Below, in pieces: positions 541 to 36,648 of a stretch of DNA of 38,975 nucleotides. The notes beneath the pieces were generated by a model. It did no database searches and was not told where the DNA came from. It was given only the letters and a program-made list of their open reading frames with translations. The number at the start of each line of letters is the position of its first letter. The stretch's first letter is position 1. The stretch spans positions 1 to 38,975 of the IMG/VR virus record IMGVR_UViG_3300027819_000029; one strand, written 5' to 3'. The stretch is from a virus (lineage: Duplodnaviria > Caudoviricetes). The position numbers were made by a program, and so were the translations under genes.

Positions 541-868
541 AAACTGGGGCGGTGCTCGTGGCGGCTCCGGCAGAAAGCCCATCTGCATATCCGACAAGGA
601 AAAGAAGAACCTCATCAAGGCCGCGAAGGAAGCGTCGAAGCGAACCGGGAAAACGGTGTGGGATATCCTGATGATGCACATTTACAACGGGAAGGACCAG
701 CCCCGCGTAAGCGTAGCCGCCATCAAGGTGTTTCAGGATGCCGTCATCGCCAAGCAGTCCCACGAGACGAAGGAGATTTATAACTATTCCCCGGCGATCC
801 TGCCGGTTCTTGAGGATGACCCGTCGAGGATCGATATGGCGAAGGCGGCACAGTCTCCGGTCCATTGA
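530..868 (+). CDS. terS: probable terminase small subunit
   Basis: Basic N-terminus 'WGGARGGSGRKP'; stop overlaps the TerL start (TGATG at 866-870); synteny. Confidence 0.6.
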   Translation: MPSKNWGGARGGSGRKPICISDKEKKNLIKAAKEASKRTGKTVWDILMMHIYNGKDQPRVSVAAIKVFQDAVIAKQSHETKEIYNYSPAILPVLEDDPSRIDMAKAAQSPVH

Positions 869-3324
869 TGTTGGCCGCGTGGAAGCCGCACGACGGCCCC
901 CAGACGGAGTTCCTTCGGCGGGGTGAGTTTGAGATTCTGTTCGGCGGGGCGGCTGGCCCCGGGAAGACCGATTGCTTGGTCATCGCCGCCACGCGGTACG
1001 TCAGCAACCCGAATTACAAGGCCCTGATCCTCCGCCGGACGTTTCCTCAGTTGGAAGAGATCATGGACCGTTGCCGGAAGTATTACCCACTGATCGACCC
1101 GGGCGCGTACTTCCTCGCCACAGAGAAGCGGTGGCATTTCTCGTCGGGCGCTACGATCAAGTTAGGCCATTGCCAGCACGAGGCCGACCGGTTCAACTAT
1201 CAGGGGCAGGATTACCATTTCATCGGATTCGATGAGGCGACACAGTTCACGGCGCTGATTTATCTGTACCTGTTCTCTCGGTGCCGGTCCACGGACCCCC
1301 GGATTCGCCCGATGGTGCGCTCCACGTCGAACCCGGGCGGCGAGGGCCACCAGTTCATCAAGGAGCGGTTCGGCATCGGTAACATTGAGCCTCGCACCAC
1401 GATGTACGAGGAGTCCGTTGACCCGATCACCGGCGAGGCGCTTCGACTGTCGCGGACGTTCATCCCGGCGACGTTGGAAGATAACCCGACGCTGCTGCTG
1501 AACGATCCGGATTATCTGGCGCGACTGGCGGCGCTGCCGACCATCGAGTATCTTCGGCTCCGCGAAGGCCGGTGGGATGCCTTTGAGGGTCAGGCGTTCC
1601 GGGAGTTGAACCGGCAGATTCACTCCATCCCGGCGTTCGACATCCCGCCGGAGTGGACCCGGTACCGGGCCTTCGACTGGGGCTACGCGAAGCCGTTTTC
1701 CGTCGGATGGTACGCCGTGGACTTCGATGGGAGGATCTACCGGTACCGGGCGTGGTACGGGTGCAAGCGGGACGAGCGCGGGAAGTTGCTCCCCGACCAA
1801 GGCATCAAGATGACCGCGACGGACATCGCCCGGGGCATCAAGGACCGGGAGCGCGGGGAGCGGATACAGGTCGGACCCGCCGGCCACGACATCTGGTCGC
1901 GTAGGCCGCAGAAGGACGGGTCTCTTGGCATCTCGGTGTTCGATGAGATGTGCGCGGAGGGCGTGGTCTGGATCAAGGCGGACAATGACCGGATGCTCGG
2001 GCGCCAGCAGTTCCACAAACGACTGGAAGTTGACGAGGATGGAAAGCCCGGCCTGTACATCTTCCAGACGCCGGAAAACGAGGATTCCTTCTGGCGCACG
2101 ATACCGATGTTGCGGGAGTACGAGCGCAACCCGGAGGAGATTGAGGAGAAGTGCGAGGACCATTGTTTCGTCGGAGAAACTGGAATAACGACGGACCTTG
2201 GCGTGAAGCCGATATCCTCCCTTGTCGGTGTAACCGGGAGGCTATGGACAGCCGGGAATCAATGGTCGGAGTTCCACGGTTGCCGGGAGACAAGGAAGTC
2301 TTCCCCGCTTGTTCGGGTTACGTTCGTTGACGGGCACGATGTTTTTTGTACTCCCGACCACCGGTTTCTCACCACAGACGGGAAGTGGACCGAAGCGAAA
2401 AACTTGACAGGCAGGGAGGTACATAGTGCAATATCTCATCTTGTCAATGGAGGTGAGATATGGAAGTCCTCGTCATCAGCCCCACGATTCAGGAGTTCCT
2501 CGGAATCAGGTATTACAAGTGCGGACCTTACTTCCAACGAAAAGGAGTTCGCTTACATCGGACCGTGTGGGAGCAGTCCAACGGGAGGCCGGTTCCTGCC
2601 GGATGGCACGTTCATCACTCCGATAAGGACAGGGCGAATAATCAACCCGGAAATCTTTCGCTCAAAGAGGACGGAGAGCACCTATCCGTTCACGGAAAGG
2701 CCAACGACCACACAAAGGCGATGTTGGCCGCACGGGAAGCGGCAAAAATATGGCACTCCAGCCCCGCAGGTCGAGAGTGGGCGAAACGAAACTTCGAAAA
2801 GAACGTTCGAGGAGAAATACAGCGAAGGGTTGAAAAGAAGTGCGAGCAATGCGGAGCGGATTACCCCGGGTTATTTCAATCAAGGTTCTGCTCTCCCGGA
2901 TGCAAAACAAAGTGGCGATACGCCGCAGGGCTTGATCGGGTCATCAGAGAGTGCATTGTTTGCGGAAAGAAATTCGAGGTCAATAAATATCTCGGGTCCA
3001 AGTCCTGCTCTCGTAAGTGCGCTGGCGTCAGGAGCGGGAACACGCGCCGTGGCCGTCCTCAGGGTAGAAGAGGCGGGGAGGGGTGACGTTTACTGCCTCT
3101 CGGTTGACGATCTTCATTCGTTCGCGCTTTCGAACGGAGTAATCGTACATAACTGCTACGAAGAGGTCCGCTACTTCTTGATGAGCCGCCCAATTAAGCC
3201 GAGGCACCGGGTAAAGCCGGACCTTAACTCGTTCCAAGCGGAGCGGCGGAAGTTGATAAAGGCGCGGGCATACGCTTCGCGCCATGGGGTCAGTCTTACT
3301 GACGCATACGGGAGGATCCGATAA
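868..3324 (+). CDS. terL: terminase large subunit precursor containing an intein (mature ~488 aa)
   Basis: 'PHDGPQTEF', Walker A 'GGAAGPGKT', Walker B 'FIGFDEATQF', motif III 'STSNPGG', nuclease 'AFDWGY'; removing the intein restores 'EDH|CYEEVRY'. ATG 868 preferred over TTG 865. Confidence 0.95.
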   Translation: MLAAWKPHDGPQTEFLRRGEFEILFGGAAGPGKTDCLVIAATRYVSNPNYKALILRRTFPQLEEIMDRCRKYYPLIDPGAYFLATEKRWHFSSGATIKLGHCQHEADRFNYQGQDYHFIGFDEATQFTALIYLYLFSRCRSTDPRIRPMVRSTSNPGGEGHQFIKERFGIGNIEPRTTMYEESVDPITGEALRLSRTFIPATLEDNPTLLLNDPDYLARLAALPTIEYLRLREGRWDAFEGQAFRELNRQIHSIPAFDIPPEWTRYRAFDWGYAKPFSVGWYAVDFDGRIYRYRAWYGCKRDERGKLLPDQGIKMTATDIARGIKDRERGERIQVGPAGHDIWSRRPQKDGSLGISVFDEMCAEGVVWIKADNDRMLGRQQFHKRLEVDEDGKPGLYIFQTPENEDSFWRTIPMLREYERNPEEIEEKCEDHCFVGETGITTDLGVKPISSLVGVTGRLWTAGNQWSEFHGCRETRKSSPLVRVTFVDGHDVFCTPDHRFLTTDGKWTEAKNLTGREVHSAISHLVNGGEIWKSSSSAPRFRSSSESGITSADLTSNEKEFAYIGPCGSSPTGGRFLPDGTFITPIRTGRIINPEIFRSKRTESTYPFTERPTTTQRRCWPHGKRQKYGTPAPQVESGRNETSKRTFEEKYSEGLKRSASNAERITPGYFNQGSALPDAKQSGDTPQGLIGSSESALFAERNSRSINISGPSPALVSALASGAGTRAVAVLRVEEAGRGDVYCLSVDDLHSFALSNGVIVHNCYEEVRYFLMSRPIKPRHRVKPDLNSFQAERRKLIKARAYASRHGVSLTDAYGRIR
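2164..3153 (+). mobile_element. intein (330 aa) in the TerL nuclease domain
   Basis: Starts with Cys 'CFVGETGITT' (block A), has 'VFCTPDHRFLT' (block B) and 'DVYCLSV', ends 'NGVIVHN' followed by a +1 Cys. Confidence 0.93.
2460..3086 (+). CDS. HNH homing endonuclease with C-terminal Cys-rich zinc-binding repeats, nested out of frame inside the intein
   Basis: 'RLHRTVWE...VP.GWHVHHSDKDRANNQPGNL' HNH motif; CxxC/FCSxxC repeats; SD GGAGGTG at 2449-2455 before ATG 2460; different frame from TerL. Confidence 0.85.
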   Translation: MEVLVISPTIQEFLGIRYYKCGPYFQRKGVRLHRTVWEQSNGRPVPAGWHVHHSDKDRANNQPGNLSLKEDGEHLSVHGKANDHTKAMLAAREAAKIWHSSPAGREWAKRNFEKNVRGEIQRRVEKKCEQCGADYPGLFQSRFCSPGCKTKWRYAAGLDRVIRECIVCGKKFEVNKYLGSKSCSRKCAGVRSGNTRRGRPQGRRGGEG

Positions 3325-6570: not shown

Positions 6571-8525
6571 ATGGCAACCATCGGGGCGACCGCCCCCTCA
6601 CAGAACACGATCAACTACGACGCCCTGAACTGATCGGGGCTTTGGAGGTTTGCCTGTACCTGTTCTGGGCTTGTGCAGCCCACAGTGACATGCCCTGCAA
6701 AGGGTGACGCCGTTTGAGACTTCAAAGCGGAGTTCTCGGTTCTTGCTCCAAGGTTCAATGTGATGGGCAGTCAGATCGCGGCCGTTTGATCCGCATTTCT
6801 GGCATCTCCACCGATCACGCCTCAGGACAGCGAGGGACCATTCCTTGTGGCGAGTGCTGCTTCGCATAAGGCGGTTTTCGGAATTAATTCCGCCTTGCCA
6901 GTTCCAGTGATTAGGACCGGAATTGGCTTCGCTTGTTTTTCGTCTCCAATCGGCATCATGAACCGGATGCGATTTCCCCTTGTTATGAGGGACGTGGTTC
7001 TTCGTGAATCCTTGCTGATTCCCGAGACACTTACCCTTCCGGCTTTCGGAGATTTTCTTTTTCGTTTCTTCCGAATGCTTCTTTCCGGCAAAGGGGGCGA
7101 AATCTTTCCTTCCGGTCATCCAGTTCTTTAGTCGGCCCTCTGCATAGGCACGACGGACGGCATCGCCGATTAACTTCCTTGATTCTGGCGAATGCTTTGT
7201 TCCGGGTTTCATCGGCAAGTCTCCTTAGAAAACGGGCTTAATTCGGCGAAAATCTTACGATCCTGCTAACTACTACACTAACAGCGTACCGGCAGGGTGT
7301 CAAGTAGATAACGCCGAGCCAGCAGGAGGGATTACGAAAGGCCCTCCGGGCGCGTGTGACGGTCAGGGGTGAATAAATATAATCCCCATAAATAGCCCGG
7401 CCGAAAGGCGTGACATGACCTGAGCCTCCGGGAAACCGGAGGAAGCGGGAAATAGAAAGCCCGCGATAACAACACTGACTCAGTACCACGCTCGCGAACT
7501 ACCGCGAAACTATGGTCGACAACATCTTCAAATCCAACGGGTTCCTTGCCGCGCTGAAGTCTTACGGCGGCATCGAATACCAGGACGGCGGGGAGCGCAT
7601 CGCGCAACCGCTGATGTACGAGGACAACGGAACCGTCAAGTCGTACAGCGGTTACGATACCCTCGACACCACGCCGCAGGACGGCATGACCACGGCGTTC
7701 TTCCCGTGGTGCGAAGTGGCTGGCACCATCTCCATCTCCCGACTCGAAGAGCGCAAGAATAGCGGCGAGTCCGCGATCCTGAAGCTCCTCGAAAAGAAGA
7801 TCCTTCAGGCCGAGATGTCCCTGAAGGCGGCCATCAATTCCCAACTGGTCCTCGGCACGGTTTCCGGGGCGACCTTCGTTCCCGGCAACTCCGCGAAGGA
7901 TCTGTTCCCCCTGGGGTACTTCCTCCGGAAGCTCAACACTACCGACCCGACCACGGGCGGGAACGTCGGCAACATCGCGGGGGCGACGTACTCCTGGTGG
8001 AGGCACAAGACCGGCACGTTCGCGTCCGCGTCCGCCGACACGGGGAACTCGCTCGCCGTAGCGGTTACAACGTACAAGGGCATGAAGAACGGGTTGCACC
8101 GTCTGTACAACTGGTGCTCCAGGGGTGCCGACGGAACCGGCCCGAATATCATGCTTGCCGATCAGGTCAGCTACGAGACCTACGTCAACGCCATCCAGGA
8201 CCAGCGGCAGTACCAGGACGACAAGCTGGCCCAGATCGGCTTCGACAACATCAAGGTCCGGGCGGCTACGCTCATCTGGGACGAACTGGTCCCGGACATC
8301 TCGAACGGAACCGCCGCCATCACCCTGGGCTCCGTGTTCGCCCTGAACACGAAGTTCTACAAGCTGGTCATCGACTCGCAGACGGATTTCGTGACCACTC
8401 CGTTCATCGAGCCGGAGAACCAGACCGCGAAGACCGCGAAGATCCTCTTCATGGGGAACGCCACCGTTTCCAACATGCGGAAGCTCGGCGTGGCTTACGG
8501 AATCGCTCAGACCATCGCGTCGTAA
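6571..8525 (+). CDS. major capsid protein, spliced: join(6571..6626,7478..8525), 367 aa
   Basis: SD AAGGAGG + ATG 6571 gives MATIGATAPSQNTINYDAL then a stop; joining CT|A restores 'NYDALLSTTLANYRETMVDNIFKSN...'; the 7512 ATG has no SD; the body ('GGERI.QPL.Y', 'GFDNIKV') resembles HK97-fold capsids. Confidence 0.88.
6598..7212 (-). CDS. intron-encoded HNH endonuclease with NUMOD3 repeats (antisense to the intron)
   Basis: NUMOD3 'GKKHSEETKKKISES'; HNH 'VLRRDRWRCQKCG...LTAHHI.PW...NGVTLCRACH'; minus-strand SD AAGGAG (7221-7226) 8 nt from ATG 7212. Confidence 0.88.
   Translation of the reverse strand: MKPGTKHSPESRKLIGDAVRRAYAEGRLKNWMTGRKDFAPFAGKKHSEETKKKISESRKGKCLGNQQGFTKNHVPHNKGKSHPVHDADWRRKTSEANSGPNHWNWQGGINSENRLMRSSTRHKEWSLAVLRRDRWRCQKCGSNGRDLTAHHIEPWSKNRELRFEVSNGVTLCRACHCGLHKPRTGTGKPPKPRSVQGVVVDRVL
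6627..7477 (+). mobile_element. group I intron (851 nt) in the major capsid gene
   Basis: P1 GCCCU/GGGGC with U.G at the 5' splice site; P2 6644-6654/7214-7224; P3 CGGGCU/AGCCCG; P4 UUCGGCG/CGCCGAG; P7 ACGGUCA/UGACCU; P8 GCC-GAAA-GGC; P9 CCUCCGG-GAAA-CCGGAGG; terminal G 7477; splicing restores the frame. Confidence 0.9.
7275..7303 (-). promoter_or_regulatory. sigma70-type antisense promoter for the intron HNH, inside the ribozyme P5 region
   Basis: Minus strand TTGACA (7298-7303), 17 nt, TAGTGT (7275-7280) with extended -10 TG. Confidence 0.65.
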
Positions 8526-8600
8526 TTCAACCGTCAACCCCTCAACAACGCGGCGGGGAGTCGGGGCCTCGTGTCAGCCACAAAAAAGGGAGGTAGTGCA

Positions 8601-9985
8601 ATGTTGCTCCAGAGGATCAATTAGGTCCCTCTCCGTGTCGAGGACGGAGATGCAAACCGGGTGAATTCGGTGAACCCCGACCGGGAAACCGAGGGCAACG
8701 CCGAGCCAAGCCGGGGATACATCCCCGGAAGGTGTAGAGACTACCGGAGGGGTTCAGTCCCCTTAATAACCGGCCAGAGCGCCCGGGCCGAAAGGCATGA
8801 CATAGTCCACTCCCTTGGGTAACCAAGGAATCGAGTGCAATCGTTCAGACCCCGAGAAAATCTTCATCGTCGTGAAGAACACGTACTCAACCGCGTCACT
8901 CACCAACGGGCAGGCGGTGATCTGGGATTAGTCACATAGTCCCCCATCGTTTCTTCGGACCTAATTTAAGGGAGGACAGAACTTCAGGATGATTGGCGGG
9001 ATGATCCCTGCGACGGAGAACTTCCAGGTTCCCGATGGCATTATTCTGTTTGTTGCCGTCGATATGATGGACGATCTCGTAACGCCGCAGTTTCCTGCCA
9101 AGGTGCGTTTCCATGACGTGCCGATGTTCAAGCATACGCTTCCCGTTTACGGTGATTTCCCTGTAGCCCTGAGTGGAAATTCCCCCTTCTCCGTTGGCAC
9201 GTTTTTTACGGAAGAGGGGATCGCCGTAGCGGACCAGTCGCAGGTAGTGGGTATTGCACATCCCACGACCAGTGACTGGATTCTCGCAATCTTTAATGAC
9301 GCAGAGATTGGGAGAATCATGCTTGACAAATCGTCCTGTAGAATCCTTTTCCATTCGGTCCATGATTTATCCTCCTTGCTTGATAGTATGCCACAGACGA
9401 CAACGGAAGGCAAGAGGAACGATGGTGCAAACGGGGTGAACTCAGGGAAACCCGAACGGATAATGCCGAGGGCAATCCTGAGCCAAGCCGGGGATACATC
9501 CCCGGAAGGTGCAGAGACTACCGGAGGGGTTCAGTCCCCTTAATAACCGGCCAGAGCGCCCCGCTCGAAAGAGATGATATAGTCCGAGCCACCAGTAATG
9601 GTGGAACAACTTGTATGCCACGGACGCCGATGGCGTGGGAGTCACCAAGCCCACGGACACGGCAGCCGTGAAAGCCCTTCACAACGGGACCGCGTTCGCC
9701 GGTATCGCCGCGCAGACCATCGCGTCGGGCGCCTACGGGCTCATCCAGGTGTACGGGTACCACAGCGCGGTCCGCGTTCGCTCATGGACCGCCGGTGTCC
9801 CCGGCATCGCGGCGGGCACGGCTCTCGTTTGCGTGAGCGCCGTGTTCTGCCTGGAGAGCTACATCAACTACGCGCTGGCGACGAGTTCGCTGACGCAGGT
9901 CAACGTGAGGCACGCCGGGTTCGCGCTCGCGGCGCAGGCGTCCTGGACTACTAAGGCGATCGCGGTTTTTATAAAGGCTTTATAG
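8601..9985 (+). CDS. capsid decoration/cement-like protein, spliced: join(8601..8617,8838..8928,9614..9985), 159 aa
   Basis: SD GGGAGG + ATG 8601; joins AT|C and GAT|TAT give MLLQRINRSDPEKIFIVVKNTYSTASLTNGQAVIWDYATDADGVGVTKP...'AGIAAQTIASGAYGLIQVYG'; follows the capsid gene. Confidence 0.8.
8618..8837 (+). mobile_element. ORF-less mini group I intron (220 nt)
   Basis: P1 GGAU/GUCC; P2 UCUCCGU/ACGGAGA; P3 CCGGGUG/CGCCCGG; P4 UUCGGUG/CGCCGAG; P7 GAGACUA/UAGUCC; P8 GCC-GAAA-GGC; P9 CCUUGG-GUAA-CCAAGG; ends ...GAGUG at 8837. Confidence 0.9.
8703..8784 (+). repeat. 82-nt direct repeat of 9480..9561 (shared intron core)
   Basis: GAGCCAAGCCGGGGATACATCCCCGGAAGGTG(T/C)AGAGACTACC...CCAGAGCGCCC, one mismatch. 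Confidence 0.95.
8932..9363 (-). CDS. intron-encoded HNH endonuclease (antisense)
   Basis: N-terminal 'C...C...GMCNTHY' zinc motif; 'EHRHVME..LGRKL...EIVHHIDGNKQNN.IGNL'; minus-strand SD AAGGAGG at 9371-9377. Confidence 0.88.
   Translation of the reverse strand: MDRMEKDSTGRFVKHDSPNLCVIKDCENPVTGRGMCNTHYLRLVRYGDPLFRKKRANGEGGISTQGYREITVNGKRMLEHRHVMETHLGRKLRRYEIVHHIDGNKQNNAIGNLEVLRRRDHPANHPEVLSSLKLGPKKRWGTM
9385..9413 (-). promoter_or_regulatory. antisense promoter for the intron HNH
   Basis: Minus strand TTGCCT (9408-9413), 17 nt, CATACT (9385-9390) with extended -10 TG. Confidence 0.5.
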
Positions 9986-9987
9986 GC

Positions 9988-10050
9988 TTGACTTTATAAA
10001 AGCACCGCTGTATCCTGGGTGTGGATTCTAAATAATCCACACCCAGGAGG
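9988..10050 (+). promoter_or_regulatory. promoter plus RBS-sequestering hairpin for the free-standing HNH
   Basis: TTGACT (9988-9993), 17 nt, TATCCT (10011-10016); perfect 15-bp inverted repeat 10013-10027/10034-10048 overlapping SD AGGAGG (10045-10050). Confidence 0.7.
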
Positions 10051-10057
10051 TTTTTAA

Positions 10058-10648
10058 ATGACGAAGAGCGAAGAAGAAAAACGAAAGCACGCAGAATGGC
10101 ACCGGGAGTGGAGGAAAAAAAATCCAGAAAAAGCCCACGGATCTCCGGAATGGAGAAAACTTCATCCGGAAAAGGCAAGGGAAATTGATAGACGTAAGCG
10201 TGAGTTATATCGAGAAAAACGGTTAGAATACGCAAGGAAATACAACAAACCGTATTACGAAAAGAACAGGTCCGTAATTAGAGAAAAACAAAGCGATTAT
10301 TATAAAGAAAACGCGGAGGTAATAAAGGGTAAGGTTAGCGAGTATTATAAGAGAAACGAAATAAATATAAAAGAAAAGCGAAAAACATCCAGGATGGAAT
10401 TAATGGCATGGATGCAGGGAATTAAACAGCAATTAAATTGCTGTAAATGTCCAGAAAATCACCCATCCTGTTTAGAGTTCCATCACTTAGATCCAGAGAC
10501 AAAAGAGTATGCTGTTGGTAGGATGTTTAGCCTTAGCCTATCGTCAGAAAAATTGAAACAAATGATCTTGGAAGAGATGGGTAAATGTATAGTGCTTTGT
10601 TCAAATTGTCATAAAAAAGAACACCACAAAACAATCGGTTGTCCTTAG
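10058..10648 (+). CDS. free-standing HNH endonuclease
   Basis: AT-rich; long K/E/R/Y helical N-terminus; 'CCKCPENHPSCLEFHHLDP...KCIVLCSNCHKKEH'. Confidence 0.85.
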   Translation: MTKSEEEKRKHAEWHREWRKKNPEKAHGSPEWRKLHPEKAREIDRRKRELYREKRLEYARKYNKPYYEKNRSVIREKQSDYYKENAEVIKGKVSEYYKRNEINIKEKRKTSRMELMAWMQGIKQQLNCCKCPENHPSCLEFHHLDPETKEYAVGRMFSLSLSSEKLKQMILEEMGKCIVLCSNCHKKEHHKTIGCP

Positions 10649-10743: not shown

Positions 10744-10989
10744 ATGACTGCAAAGTATGGGAAGGACGAGCCGTTTTCTGATCCGGTGGTGATTTGCGAT
10801 TCGTGCAACGCGCTTCTGCTTGTCGTGGAGTTGAATGAACTCGGTATGTGCGAGAAGTGCGGCAATACTCGGGTACGCAACCTTCGGATCGTAACGGAAG
10901 AAAACCTGAAAACGCTCGAAGCGTGGAGAGACGAGGGGAAGATCGACCAAGAGTTCCTGGACATCTTCGGCCCGGTGCAAAAATCATGA
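10744..10989 (+). CDS. small zinc-ribbon protein
   Basis: CDSC...CEKCG; SD GGGAGG. Confidence 0.65.
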   Translation: MTAKYGKDEPFSDPVVICDSCNALLLVVELNELGMCEKCGNTRVRNLRIVTEENLKTLEAWRDEGKIDQEFLDIFGPVQKS

Positions 10990-12404
10990 GCCGCGTCCTC
11001 ATCGGTATTCCGTGCTACCGGGACGTATCGTCGGAAACCCTCGAAGATTACATGCGCCTCGCCTACTACTGTGGCCGGCGGATGCCGGAACACGAGTTTC
11101 TTCTGGCGATCAAGCCGAAGTCCGAGCAGTTCAGGGCGCGTAACGCCATCGTTGAGGCCGCGCTTCAGACGGCGTGCGATTACCTGTTCTTCCTCGACGA
11201 CGATCATGTCATCGACTGGGAGAATACCCGGGGGCCTACTCAGCGGTACGGGATGTTGCAGACGCTGATATCCCATATGGAGGCCGACCCGAAGCGGGGC
11301 ATCGTGGGTGCCCTGTACTATCATCGCGGTGGGGACTGCCGCCCGGTTCTGATGAAATACGGTCAGGACGGAGGCACCTACTGGATCCGCGAGGATCAGA
11401 TTACCGGCGAGATGCAGGAAGTGGCCGTACAGGGCGGCGGTTGCATGTTGCTGCGGATGTCGATGTTCGACAAGATCAAGTCTCCGTGGTTCGAGCCGGA
11501 ATTTGATCTTGGAACGGATTTACAGATATGCAAGAAGGCCGTCGGTGCGGGGTTCACGGTCTGGTGTGATACGTCGATCAAGGTCGGGCACGTGCTCAAC
11601 AAGCGCGAGATCATCACGCCGAACAACCGGCATCGGTATTCGATGGAGAACGCCGCGACTCTTTCCCAGTCGGGTGAGGGAGTGGAGACGGGGTGGGCGG
11701 TGAGTTCCGCCCTCCAACTCTACCGGATGGACGCGGAAGAGCATATGGGGATGACGATCAACGATATGGCGAAGATCGCCGAGAGGTACAACCCGGCAGA
11801 CATCGCCGCCGCTGGCGACGACCTGAAGAGTTACTACGGCTCCAGAGGCAAGGAGCAGTTGGCGAGGCAGGTTATTTTCCATCATAGCCCGGCCATGATT
11901 CAGCAGATGGAAATGATCCTCGGGATGATAAATAAAAACGCGGAAGGATACGCGCTGGATTTCGGATGCGGGTCCGCTCCGGTGAGCATGGAACTCGTCA
12001 TGCGCGGGCAGCGCGTTGACTTCATCGACGTGGACGGAGCCGGGGCTTACGAGTTCACGAAGTGGCGTGCGAAGAAGCGCGGCGTATCCGACCGGTGCGG
12101 GTGGACTTGGGGCGGGCCGTATGACTACGCCCTGATGCTTGATTCCATCGAGCACCTCCCCGATTGGAGGGAAGACGTAGGCAAGGTTTGCGATCTGCTG
12201 AAAGATGGCGGGGCGCTCATCACGAATTACTTCCTTAACCGGGATTTCGATAACCCGGAGCATATTTCCATGGATCATAAGGCCGTACAGGAGTTTCTTA
12301 TAAGCAAAGGCGTGTATCCGATCAACCTTATCCTCTGGACGAAATCGGACCTTGGGTTCATGGACAAGAAGGTCATGGACGGCGGCGTATGCGCTCCGTC
12401 CTGA
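10986..12404 (+). CDS. GT-A (family 2-like) glycosyltransferase fused to a class I SAM-dependent methyltransferase
   Basis: 'VLIGIPCY...ARNAIVE..L...DYLFFLDDD...GGGCMLL...DLQIC..A...G..VWCD' then 'ALDFGCGSA...DSIEHL'; ATG 10986 coupled to the upstream stop. Confidence 0.85.
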   Translation: MSRVLIGIPCYRDVSSETLEDYMRLAYYCGRRMPEHEFLLAIKPKSEQFRARNAIVEAALQTACDYLFFLDDDHVIDWENTRGPTQRYGMLQTLISHMEADPKRGIVGALYYHRGGDCRPVLMKYGQDGGTYWIREDQITGEMQEVAVQGGGCMLLRMSMFDKIKSPWFEPEFDLGTDLQICKKAVGAGFTVWCDTSIKVGHVLNKREIITPNNRHRYSMENAATLSQSGEGVETGWAVSSALQLYRMDAEEHMGMTINDMAKIAERYNPADIAAAGDDLKSYYGSRGKEQLARQVIFHHSPAMIQQMEMILGMINKNAEGYALDFGCGSAPVSMELVMRGQRVDFIDVDGAGAYEFTKWRAKKRGVSDRCGWTWGGPYDYALMLDSIEHLPDWREDVGKVCDLLKDGGALITNYFLNRDFDNPEHISMDHKAVQEFLISKGVYPINLILWTKSDLGFMDKKVMDGGVCAPS

Positions 12405-28288: not shown

Positions 28289-28630
28289 ATGACCCTTTCC
28301 GAACGCCAACAGGTATTCGCCCGCAACGTGGCGAAGTTGATCCTCTACATGGCGGAAAGTAATTATGCCTGCACCTTCGGGGAGGCGTTGCGAACGCAGG
28401 AGATGGCCGACCTGTACGCCAATCAGAACAAGGGGATCAAGAACTCCCTGCACCTGAAGCGACTCGCTATAGACCTGAACTTGTTCAAAGACGGGAAGTA
28501 TCTTTCGGATACGGAATCCCATCGCCCCTTCGGGGAATGGTGGGAGACGCTGGACCCGATGAATCGGTGGGGCGGAAGGTTCAAGGATGGCAACCATTAC
28601 TCTATGTCCGATGATGGTAAAAATGCATAA
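28289..28630 (+). CDS. endolysin, peptidase M15 family
   Basis: 'R...Q...S.H..RLAIDL...RWGGRFKDGNHY' zinc motifs; start at MTLSERQ (28289). Confidence 0.85.
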   Translation: MTLSERQQVFARNVAKLILYMAESNYACTFGEALRTQEMADLYANQNKGIKNSLHLKRLAIDLNLFKDGKYLSDTESHRPFGEWWETLDPMNRWGGRFKDGNHYSMSDDGKNA

Positions 28631-29046
28631 TGTTCTTCTACATGGTGCGCCTTGCACAACCAACGGACCTCTAATGGTTTCGCATAATCGGCATGATGTG
28701 CTTCAGGGTCGCCTGATCCACATATATTGCACGCCTTACGGATCAATCTTCCGTCCCTTATGGCGTTGGAAACGGCAGTTTGAGCGGCCCGCTTCTGTTG
28801 GTTTTTGGTTCTCCATTTTTTCATTCTGGCAGATATTACTTTTTTGCCACGATCGGATGATGCCCATGAAGCATACGTTGATTTTCCTTCCGGGCTATTC
28901 CTTTGCATCCGGCACCATTCATTGTGGCAAGGCTTGCAACGCGGAGTGTAATAACCACCAGAACAGAAATATTCCGACAGGGGTTTTTCTATGGAGCATG
29001 ATTTGCAAACCTTTGTTTTCCCATCGTCTTTACGCGGCATCACCAT
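28597..29046 (-). CDS. HNH-like (His-Me finger) endonuclease, antisense within the lysis region
   Basis: 'CKSCSIEKPLSEY...CKPC' zinc finger; 'CNICG...EAHHADYAKPLEVRWLCKAHH'; minus-strand SD GGAGG at 29052-29056. Confidence 0.8.
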   Translation of the reverse strand: MVMPRKDDGKTKVCKSCSIEKPLSEYFCSGGYYTPRCKPCHNEWCRMQRNSPEGKSTYASWASSDRGKKVISARMKKWRTKNQQKRAAQTAVSNAIRDGRLIRKACNICGSGDPEAHHADYAKPLEVRWLCKAHHVEEHYAFLPSSDIE

Positions 29047-29074
29047 AATGGCCTCCATGTATCAAGATGTAACT

Positions 29075-29847: not shown

Positions 29848-30435
29848 ATGTGGGAAAAGTTAAAGACCCTTGCGTCGGGTGCTTCGATCCCTTGGGGGCT
29901 TCTTGCCCTCGGTTTGCTTGTGCTTGCTTTCTTGCGCTACGCCCCGGACTCCCTGAAGCCGTGGGGAAACACCCCCCAACCTGCCGTCCAGCCGAAGGAC
30001 CCGGCGGCAAAGGTGGAGCGCATCGAAGTCCCCGGCCCGGTCCGCATAAAGGTCATCGAAAAGATAAAGTACGTTGACCGCTTCCCCGACGTGCTCACCC
30101 CGGCCACGGTGCAGGACAACTCCGCCCATGTGATCGCCTCCGCGACCATCCCCCCATCCTCGGCAGGCGGTACAGCCTCGGCCATCCTCCGGTATCAGGA
30201 CGGGGTAGGCGTGGGGTCGATCGAGTACAGGCCAGCAACGCCGCCATTCTTCGCCATCCAGAAGGAATTCGGGGTCCGGGCGGGTATGGGAACGGGGGGG
30301 CTGGTCATAGGCGAGTTATACGCTCGTCCGCTGAGAATTGGTCCAGTAACGGTGGAAGTGCGCGGGTGGGGCAAGCGTGATGATCGAAGCGGGGCCGATT
30401 TTGGAGCCGCTATTTTAGGCGATATGCGCTTCTGA
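29848..30435 (+). CDS. membrane-anchored protein, spanin-like candidate
   Basis: N-terminal TM helix, 'VERIEV...KVIEKIKYV' stalk, C-terminal amphipathic strands ending in Phe; start MWEKL. Confidence 0.5.
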   Translation: MWEKLKTLASGASIPWGLLALGLLVLAFLRYAPDSLKPWGNTPQPAVQPKDPAAKVERIEVPGPVRIKVIEKIKYVDRFPDVLTPATVQDNSAHVIASATIPPSSAGGTASAILRYQDGVGVGSIEYRPATPPFFAIQKEFGVRAGMGTGGLVIGELYARPLRIGPVTVEVRGWGKRDDRSGADFGAAILGDMRF

Positions 30436-30852
30436 TGGCAAATCGGGGAAATACGAGATGGAACCATTATGCAAAACTACCGCCAATATGTCTCTTTTGT
30501 CTTTTATGTGCTTACTGTAAGCCAACTTGCCCGTGCCGGGGGTAATGTATCCCGTGGTGACTTCAACCCTCAATAAAGTTCCGTTCCTAAATGCTACCAT
30601 GTCGCATGGGGATGACGGACTAAGTGCCCTGAATACTTCCCATCCTCGCAACATTAGGTCTACCGATGCCCGTAATTCATTCAGGGCACCAACAGCCCCG
30701 GGGGATATGTTTGGGCACGGGTTGACATTCCTGTATCGTTTGCGTTCGTGCAATTTTGAGCATTTCCCCGAACAGGTTTTCGCTCTTTTCCTGAACCTGT
30801 CGCCCGGGATGGGTTCTCCGCACTCCAAGCACAATGCATTCATGGTTTCCAT
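30415..30852 (-). CDS. PD-(D/E)XK homing-endonuclease-like protein with N-terminal zinc finger
   Basis: 'CLECG...TCSGKC' then 'GAVG..NE..A..DL..RGWEVF...CDMV...LRVEVTT', like group I intron-associated PD-(D/E)XK nucleases. Confidence 0.7.
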   Translation of the reverse strand: METMNALCLECGEPIPGDRFRKRAKTCSGKCSKLHERKRYRNVNPCPNISPGAVGALNELRASVDLMLRGWEVFRALSPSSPCDMVAFRNGTLLRVEVTTGYITPGTGKLAYSKHIKDKRDILAVVLHNGSISYFPDLPSEAHIA

Positions 30853-31405: not shown

Positions 31406-32023
31406 CTATAACAACAACGGTTGTGCCGTAATTTCCTTACTTGCATCATATCGTTCCGTGTTACCCTTTGGATATGTTTGGGTTGGATAGTTCAATGAAG
31501 ACAACATATCCTTTATTTCTCTATGGCTACCAATGAAATATACGTATCGGTGCTTTGATGTCCTTGGTTGCCTAATTGATTTGTCTCCGCCGTGATGCCT
31601 TGCGTGTTTTCCTTCACCGGAATAAATGTCCGTCCTTTCCTTCGTGCACCCGGTATAAAGCCAATTGGTTGCTTGGTATATGTACCCGATGTGCCCTTTC
31701 CCTACATCTGCATAACTAACTATAATCCTTGGTCTATCCAACTGCTTCAGGCTGGATGACACCAATACGCTCGCCCTGTTATTCCCTCCGTCTTCTATGC
31801 AAACCCTGTTTAATTCAAGAACTATTTTGGCATATTTTTTACCGCATATCCCGGAGCAAAGATATGGGGATGCGGGCACTCCGTAGGTGGCTATGCCCAC
31901 CAACATATTTCCTTCGTACAATCCAAACGCATCTGTAATGCATGGCAATCTCTTGGCGTAATGTCTTTCCAATATCCAAGGATAAGTCACCTCTGAGGAT
32001 ACTCTGTAAACATTGGATTTCAT
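31406..32023 (-). CDS. Mom-like (GNAT-fold) DNA adenine modification protein
   Basis: 'I...HY...FGL...G...YG.P...ELNR...IVSYAD...H.G.IYQATNWLYTG...KHRY' signature; low GC. Confidence 0.7.
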   Translation of the reverse strand: MKSNVYRVSSEVTYPWILERHYAKRLPCITDAFGLYEGNMLVGIATYGVPASPYLCSGICGKKYAKIVLELNRVCIEDGGNNRASVLVSSSLKQLDRPRIIVSYADVGKGHIGYIYQATNWLYTGCTKERTDIYSGEGKHARHHGGDKSIRQPRTSKHRYVYFIGSHREIKDMLSSLNYPTQTYPKGNTERYDASKEITAQPLLL

Positions 32024-36558: not shown

Positions 36559-36648
36559 ATACTCTCACGCATCCGGGAATGTGTCAACAATTATTTTTAG
36601 AGAAGGTGAAAGAAATAATTTGACACGGTAACAGCGATCCATTATAAG
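36559..36648. promoter_or_regulatory. back-to-back divergent promoters with inverted symmetry
   Basis: Left: TTGACA (36582-36587, minus), 17 nt, GAGTAT with TG; right: TTGACA (36620-36625), 17 nt, TATAAG; AT-rich spacer with GTGTCAA.AATTATTT / AAATAATT.TGACAC symmetry. Confidence 0.7.

Follow-up and report, generated by a model that had tools for sequence, protein, structure and literature searches.

A 38,975-base virus record with an estimated completeness of 47% (the window) carries three group I introns in two adjacent head genes, and two of these introns contain an HNH endonuclease gene on the strand opposite to the head genes. These genes, here named HEG1 (intron 1) and HEG2 (intron 3), are best read as self-expressing homing-endonuclease gene (HEG) cassettes whose antisense overlap with the head-gene RNA is a by-product, a reading to which we assign a probability of roughly two in three. 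The selfish mobile cassette is favoured over a splicing switch because some relatives keep the intron while the nuclease gene and its promoter decay. The initial annotation had raised antisense control of capsid splicing by the nuclease messenger RNAs (mRNAs), a proposal that is not supported, as the sequence comparisons mostly go against it. The layout itself is known and this is one more case of it, mycobacteriophage LittleE and nuclear ribosomal DNA (rDNA) introns having preceded it.

Antisense endonuclease genes

HEG1 (6598..7212, minus strand) starts at an ATG and encodes a 204-aa NUMOD3 and HNH endonuclease inside intron 1, with its stop codon (6598-6600) 29 nt within exon 1 of the major capsid gene. 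A 206-aa form starting at TTG matched NUMOD3 and HNH in Pfam with E-values of 2e-9 and 1e-8, and residues H151, N167, C172, C175 and H176 were invariant in all eight aligned proteins. HEG2 (8932..9363, minus strand) encodes a 143-aa HNH_3 endonuclease (E 6e-10) inside intron 3, ends in the P1 loop (stop at 8932-8934) and has an antisense HNH ortholog, 59% identical, in locus L138. PDB sequence searches returned weak matches to the GVE2-type HNH 5h0m (E 0.002) and to the I-TevI DNA-binding domain (E 0.13). By analogy, both nucleases would be expected to cleave the intron-minus allele and to home.

The helix names used here follow general usage. Both HEGs lie in L2, the loop of P2, whose strands pair over a long range at 6644..6654 (plus strand) with 7214-7224 in intron 1, and at 8944-8955 with 9414-9425 in intron 3; random pairs of 25-nt windows equalled the stem in 83 of 3000 trials for intron 1 and in 47 of 3000 for intron 3. 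An ortholog of intron 1 at the same site that lacks the open reading frame (ORF), L314, folds P2 as a short plain hairpin, which places the insert in L2. The Pfam matches, the P2 pairing and this hairpin thus bear out the initial annotation, which had put opposite-strand HNH ORFs within a long-range P2 in both ORF-bearing introns and had located their stops in exon 1 and in the P1 loop. Its further point that the nucleases cannot be translated from the intron RNA also holds, and they need transcripts of their own.

In the proposed mechanism, host RNA polymerase would transcribe each cassette from its own predicted promoter, probably early, before the late operon. The nuclease would then cut an intron-minus allele, and repair would copy the intron in; the steps after transcription rest on established HEG biology (PMC3073962). 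A cassette with its own promoter should work either way round, and the backward orientation would also keep ribosomes off the precursor RNA. The position of the cassette is enough to account for the expected complementarity of the HEG mRNA to P2, P1 and exon 1. This overlap may cost some splicing and is likely a by-product and not a selected switch; it is probably tolerated since the late head mRNA would be far more abundant and made later. The cassettes would pass through the ordinary HEG cycle of gain, decay and loss, the promoter decaying too, and HEG decay has been described as the usual life cycle (PMC13619312).

Promoters and translation signals

Predicted sigma70 promoters were found where the initial annotation had placed them. 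That of HEG1 (7275..7303, minus strand) reads TTGACA-17-TGtTAGTGT from 7303 to 7275 and lies in the P5 extension, and that of HEG2 (9385..9413, minus strand) reads TTGCCT-17-TGgCATACT from 9413 to 9385 and lies in L2. By an ad hoc promoter score, the HEG1 site is in the top 4 of the window and the HEG2 site in the top 13; shuffled sequence gave about 0.9 sites as high as that of HEG1 and about 5 as high as that of HEG2. The HEG2 promoter is conserved in register in L138, where TTGACA-17-TAAACT stands ahead of the orthologous antisense HNH gene.

A Shine-Dalgarno (SD) sequence, AGGAGG, lies between the predicted HEG2 promoter and its ATG. In HEG1 the SD region and the 3' strand of P2 (7214-7224) share the segment 7214..7227 (minus strand), and the complement of the P2 strand forms part of the SD TAAGGAGA (7227-7220), as had been pointed out. 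All letters of 7214-7227 are identical in the ORF-less L314.

Downstream of the HEGs, the minus strand yielded no hairpin followed by a proper U tract, and any antisense transcript would therefore span P1 and exon 1 wherever the stop falls. The initial annotation was also right to expect nuclease mRNAs complementary to P1 and the 5' splice site; the complementarity would extend to P2. The antisense terminator that L138 has between the two head genes was considered and discarded as unspecific, since intron-less homologs, L005 and L016 among them, have a comparable hairpin preceded by an A-run; the counterpart in the window is weak.

Decay of the cassettes in related sequences

In the same-site orthologs of intron 1, L314 and L353, the antisense frame stops at positions -2 to +1 relative to the splice junction. 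The window differs by an A-U to G-C change in the first pair of P1 past this junction, which removes the stop and extends the frame 29 nt into exon 1. With two orthologs for comparison, the overrun appears to be the derived state and looks like a one-base accident. The stop in intron 3 also differs, lying at -1 to +2 in L138 versus +4 to +6 in the window. The overrun was thus rejected as a designed feature, given that the stop position differs among orthologs; since the end of an ORF does not set the end of its RNA, it is also uninformative about the transcript end.

A Smithella genome-bin contig (L353/L365) has kept both introns, with nuclease ORFs that are internally deleted remnants. In its intron 3 (L365) the -10 box is TGTACT, the conserved A at the second position being lost. 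The second base of the -10 box is a conserved position. A 930-nt contig of intron 1 from public run X6 differs from the window at three positions, all within the cassette: the invariant Asn167 is changed to Thr, Arg132 to Cys, and T7279G alters this conserved position of the -10 box. The Arg132 change is a common variant, also present in X4, X5, X7 and X10, and T7279G occurs in two of the five runs covering the site (X6, depth 29.5; X10, depth 2.5). Position 7279 is an unpaired loop base, and T7279G is predicted to leave the ribozyme intact. The coupled decay of promoter and nuclease, with N167T and T7279G in X6 and the remnants in L353/L365, counts for the cassette reading.

A metagenome scan for same-site orthologs of intron 1 gave L336 alone, which is apparently the window's own sequence and not independent, and viral scans for intron-3 orthologs returned the L138 contig again and nothing else. 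There were 26 genome matches, of which six were inspected and three were introns. Custom nhmmer profiles run on 151 loci of HEG relatives and 15 capsid loci detected a minus-strand intron core in L138 only, indicating that most relatives of both nucleases have no detected intron nearby.

Orientation of nucleases in related introns

A core pattern for introns resembling 2 and 3 gave 120 loci, sampled from about 1500, and flanks were fetched for 80. Among these 80, at least eight, all of one lineage, have the P1 loop of a capsid intron occupied by an antisense HNH gene (Pfam was run on four of the eight), and eight have a sense nuclease inside the intron (L035, L039, L050, L051, L054, L060, L065 and L092), calls of the latter kind being made by position relative to the core motifs. 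Pfam was run on 55 of 81 candidate ORFs plus two more, with near-duplicates and apparent host genes excluded. In L096 and L097 an ORF-less capsid intron occupies the same site, with a free-standing HNH gene upstream on the opposite strand.

The pattern for the intron-1 subtype gave 47 matches, 28 of them intron-like by eye. A sense nuclease ORF is present in ten of these 28 introns and an antisense one in a single case (L311), and most of the sense nucleases share the NUMOD3/HNH family of HEG1. Four sense members (L296, L297, L302 and L320) have a TGnTAnAAT box of their own 6-7 nt 5' of the ATG; these boxes were read by eye, as the ad hoc score skipped the last 12 nt before starts. A survey of orientation in homologous introns had been suggested as a check on antisense control, and its outcome, with the same nuclease family also sense in sister introns, speaks against that idea. 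From sequence comparison, backward placement is a recurring minority state of cassettes with their own promoter.

Two free-standing endonuclease genes of the window, 28597-29058 and 30415-30852 (both minus strand; phrog_2340; PDDEXK_5, weak), likewise face the late genes. Strong sigma70-like sites lie ahead of them and they overlap the 3' ends of their neighbours. The presence of both orientations within one intron subtype, and of free-standing antisense cassettes in the same genome, counts for the cassette reading.

Group I introns and head genes

Exon 1 of the major capsid gene (6571..6626, plus strand) starts with the ATG at 6571 and extends to the U that enters the P1 U.G pair; it matches uninterrupted homologs (L003-L015). 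Exon 2 (7478..8525, plus strand) matches the major head protein family phrog_9953 (E 8e-37), and joining the two without intron 1 gives a protein of 367 aa. The second head gene (8601..9985, plus strand) has exons at 8601-8617, 8838-8928 and 9614-9985 and encodes 159 aa when spliced. Both joined products match uninterrupted homologs, for which 15 related loci were fetched. Intron 1 lies in the major capsid gene, as the initial annotation had it, while intron 3 belongs to the following gene and not to the major capsid gene as then described.

Intron 1 (6627..7477, plus strand; 851 nt) has an atypical P7, GGUCA/UGACC, and its P1 (6622..6640, plus strand) reads GCCCU|GA...UCGGGGC. Intron 2 (8618..8837, plus strand) is ORF-less, and intron 3 (8929..9613, plus strand; 685 nt) has its P1 at 8924-8943; the cores of introns 2 and 3 are 87.5% identical across 160 nt. 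The 5' splice-site U.G pair in the P1 hairpins involves U6626, U8617 and U8928, and the terminal intron G is G7477, G8837 and G9613, respectively. Introns 2 and 3 align to Rfam RF00028, intron 3 with 54.3 bits, above the gathering score, and intron 2 with 44.7 bits (E 2e-8), below it.

Intron 1 was unmatched in the RF00028 search even at E<=1, and its core had no blastn counterpart among 50,697 GenBank phage records (E<=1e-3). In an alignment of 13 relatives of its type, 98.4% of 438 cells were paired and 20 of 34 pairs showed compensatory change, a value reached in 0 of 500 shuffles; P7 was invariant across the alignment and contributes no covariation. Intron 1 was accepted despite the Rfam miss because this covariation supports the core, and it reads as a group I intron with a P3-P7 pseudoknot core, P4, P6, P8 and a G-C guanosine-binding pair. 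Its subtype (window 7226-7477; L290-L335) combines the GGUCA/UGACC P7 with a 3' GAAAUAGAAA motif and occurs at some 28 viral loci, frequently within head genes. A 10/12 match to a sense promoter, GTGACG-16-TATAAT (7356-7383, plus strand), falls within the conserved P7/P7.1 region of intron 1; both L314 and L353 share it, which may be mere ribozyme conservation.

A DNA contig from public run X9 joins 6626 to 7478 exactly, with a short side of 147 letters. The joints 8617>8838 and 8928>9614 were found in X3 and X6 with short sides of 26-28 letters, and are hence weaker. These exact exon-exon joints in DNA indicate that intron-minus alleles exist, and for introns 2 and 3 intron-plus and intron-minus alleles are present within the same runs. 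We infer that the window introns are spliced. An assembly or annotation artefact was ruled out as the source of the layout, as contigs from several studies carry it.

The product of the second head gene is probably a capsid decoration (cement) protein like lambda gpD and not a major capsid protein. An atlas search gave Phage_cement_2 as the lead for this gene. A low-confidence model of the 87%-identical homolog in L005 (mean predicted local distance difference test score, pLDDT, 54.8), resembled capsid chains of phages, lambda gpD among them, with a best Z of 7.9, a middling score, and Foldseek with this model gave no match at E<=0.001. In L006, L016 and L017 the decoration-like gene lies 3' of the capsid gene in two or three tandem paralogous copies. 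L016 also has a capsid homolog (L016:2090-2710) with a different, further-downstream insertion that contains a sense 172-aa ORF with a LAGLIDADG-like motif.

Alternative explanations

Several observations weigh against the cassette reading. The consensus promoter scanner lists neither HEG promoter, so that the two sites of the initial annotation stand as predictions; the first has a -10 box matching at 3/6 positions and the second site matches at 8/12. In the ORF-less L314 the scanner does list an antisense site, TCGACA-17-TAAGAT (9/12; 0.4 expected per 700 nt), and this ortholog also retains an SD and an ATG, together with a frame of 11 codons that stops at the splice site. L353 retains a TTGACT (-35) and a TGtTATTGT box, with spacing that is wrong for a promoter. 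The X10 contig with T7279G has a depth of just 2.5 and N167T is confined to one run. Finally, all four antisense lineages found sit near the 5' end of head genes.

Of the other explanations, selection of the backward orientation itself for the benefit of the nuclease survives best, although we consider it unlikely. Orientation would then allow expression outside the late programme (early or in a prophage), attack on intron-minus relatives during co- or superinfection, and a core free of ribosomes. It fits with the finding of four separate antisense lineages, with the sense HEGs in 5' loops that run on into the core (L296, L297, L302, L310 and L320), and with the harm that translation into the core does to td splicing in T4 (PMC2988022). 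Competing intron-minus alleles coexist with the introns in the same runs, and intron nucleases can act in phage competition (PMC11620839). A prophage stage is hinted at by divergent promoters at 36587 (minus) and 36620 (plus), which resemble a temperate switch, and by a relative in a Smithella genome bin. However, sense placement is commoner by number of sites in both surveys, and the scanned ORFs of this record, with its estimated completeness of 47%, yielded neither an integrase nor a repressor.

The idea that the early antisense mRNAs are a selected brake, pairing with P1, the 5' splice site and the ribosome-binding region to delay splicing or translation of the head proteins, is improbable. 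Its attraction lies in the perfect complementarity to P2, P1 and exon 1 with no strong terminator found, in L314, which has no nuclease and still keeps a promoter-like site, SD and mini-frame, and in the location of the antisense lineages at head-gene 5' ends; regulated splicing and an antisense RNA have moreover been reported at the S-PM2 psbA intron locus (PMC5931967). On the other side, the ORF stops vary among orthologs and the overrun is not conserved. The persistence of the two L314 promoter boxes can be explained by RNA structure, as both of them overlap P5 helices, and sense-HEG introns also occur in head genes, so the location is not evidence of enrichment. The promoter-down allele T7279G accompanies a dead-looking nuclease in X6 and stands alone in X10, and L365 has a decayed -10 box. 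Relatives that lack the intron or carry a sense HEG get by without such a brake, free-standing antisense cassettes with similar promoters occur elsewhere in the genome, and the LittleE capsid intron is spliced despite its bottom-strand nuclease (PMC3706429). A more specific version, in which the nuclease mRNAs time head assembly by being made early, pairing with P1 and the capsid start and holding splicing until late transcription outruns them, is an equally long shot; if it were true, lineages such as L314 would have held on to the antisense promoter past the loss of the nuclease, which would amount to a domesticated antisense regulator of a ribozyme.

That the cassettes are already silent relics, with promoter-like sites that are remnants or chance and no antisense RNA, would suit the poor -10 box of HEG1, the silence of the scanner on both sites and the degenerate alleles nearby, but it is very hard to reconcile with two full-length ORFs, intact invariant HNH residues in HEG1, and the conservation of HEG2 and its promoter in register in L138 at 59% protein identity.

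Comparison with known systems

The closest counterpart is LittleE, whose major capsid gene (13) has an intron of about 820 nt with a U at the exon end, a G at the intron end and a bottom-strand endonuclease, gp14 (Pope et al. 2013, PMC3706429). As in the window, a capsid-gene intron carries a bottom-strand nuclease and a second virion gene holds an ORF-less sister intron. Intron 1 shows this layout of a group I intron in a major capsid gene with an opposite-strand nuclease, and intron 3 shows it too, in the next head gene. Efficient in vivo splicing of the LittleE intron was demonstrated by reverse transcription PCR and protein sequencing (PMC3706429), whereas splicing in the window is deduced. 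LittleE gp14 is LAGLIDADG-related according to the text, or HNH according to a legend (PMC3706429), while the window has two HNH cassettes, in adjacent head genes, in L2 and with predicted promoters.

Antisense HEGs with their own internal promoters are also known from nuclear rDNA group I introns, namely I-DirII and I-DsqI (PMC3073962, PMC9548176). They share with the window the antisense strand, a promoter of their own (predicted in the window) and the hazard, raised for them, of antisense interference with the precursor. They differ in being eukaryotic His-Cys enzymes with RNA polymerase II promoters, I-DsqI lying in P9. The nucleolus and nucleoplasm have been proposed to separate the two RNAs, which is impossible in a phage, and tolerance of an mRNA antisense to an essential precursor has been called unsolved (PMC9548176).

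I-TevI of the T4 td intron resembles the HEGs of the window in having its own promoter and an ORF that overlaps ribozyme helices (PMC2988022), and overlap of HEG ORFs with intron helices is common (PMC3073962, Table 1). It differs in being sense, in P6 and under late-promoter and hairpin control, and T4 segD, although antisense between capsid genes 23 and 24, is free-standing without its own promoter (PMC2988022). At the cyanophage S-PM2 psbA locus, where a phage gene likewise has a group I intron, an antisense RNA, CfrI, is expressed (PMC5931967, PMC2984593); unlike the HEG mRNAs, CfrI is non-coding, lies at the psbA 3' end beside a free-standing sense nuclease, and has had a role in splicing merely suggested for it. 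The S-PM2 psbA intron core is 74% identical to that of intron 3 over 116 query bases.

In open-licence papers without their supplements, no report or test of a HEG mRNA controlling phage intron splicing was found. Term look-ups in PMC3428280, PMC3984707, PMC6669764, PMC12724721, PMC11878797 and PMC11835236 gave nothing on antisense intron HEGs.

Other features of the window

Further nuclease genes were found on the plus strand. The one at 9988-10648 is a free-standing HNH gene. It has a promoter-like site of its own, TTGACT-17-TATCCT, and its SD is partly covered by a perfect 15-bp hairpin (10013-10048), which resembles the T4 I-TevI and segB hairpins. The terminase gene (865-3324, plus strand) contains an intein with an open frame, in which an HNH ORF (2460-3086, plus strand; 208 aa; phrog_15471, E 8e-44) lies in another frame with its own SD. 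A similar out-of-frame HNH is known from the ShiLan element (PMC11855218), but the arrangement in the window includes intein motifs.

The divergent sigma70-like promoters mentioned above are located within 36559-36648. The head module includes a fused glycosyltransferase-methyltransferase gene (10848-12404), and a DNA modification gene of the Mom family is encoded on the minus strand at 31406-32023.

Implications

The capsid intron subtype represented by intron 1 is missed by Rfam, and capsid genes carrying it would be annotated with a truncated start. What this locus adds is a pair of cassettes in neighbouring genes, a series of decay stages that can be seen, and T7279G as a naturally occurring promoter variant. 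With its intron-minus targets, ORF-deleted orthologs and T7279G, the locus makes the regulatory question directly testable.

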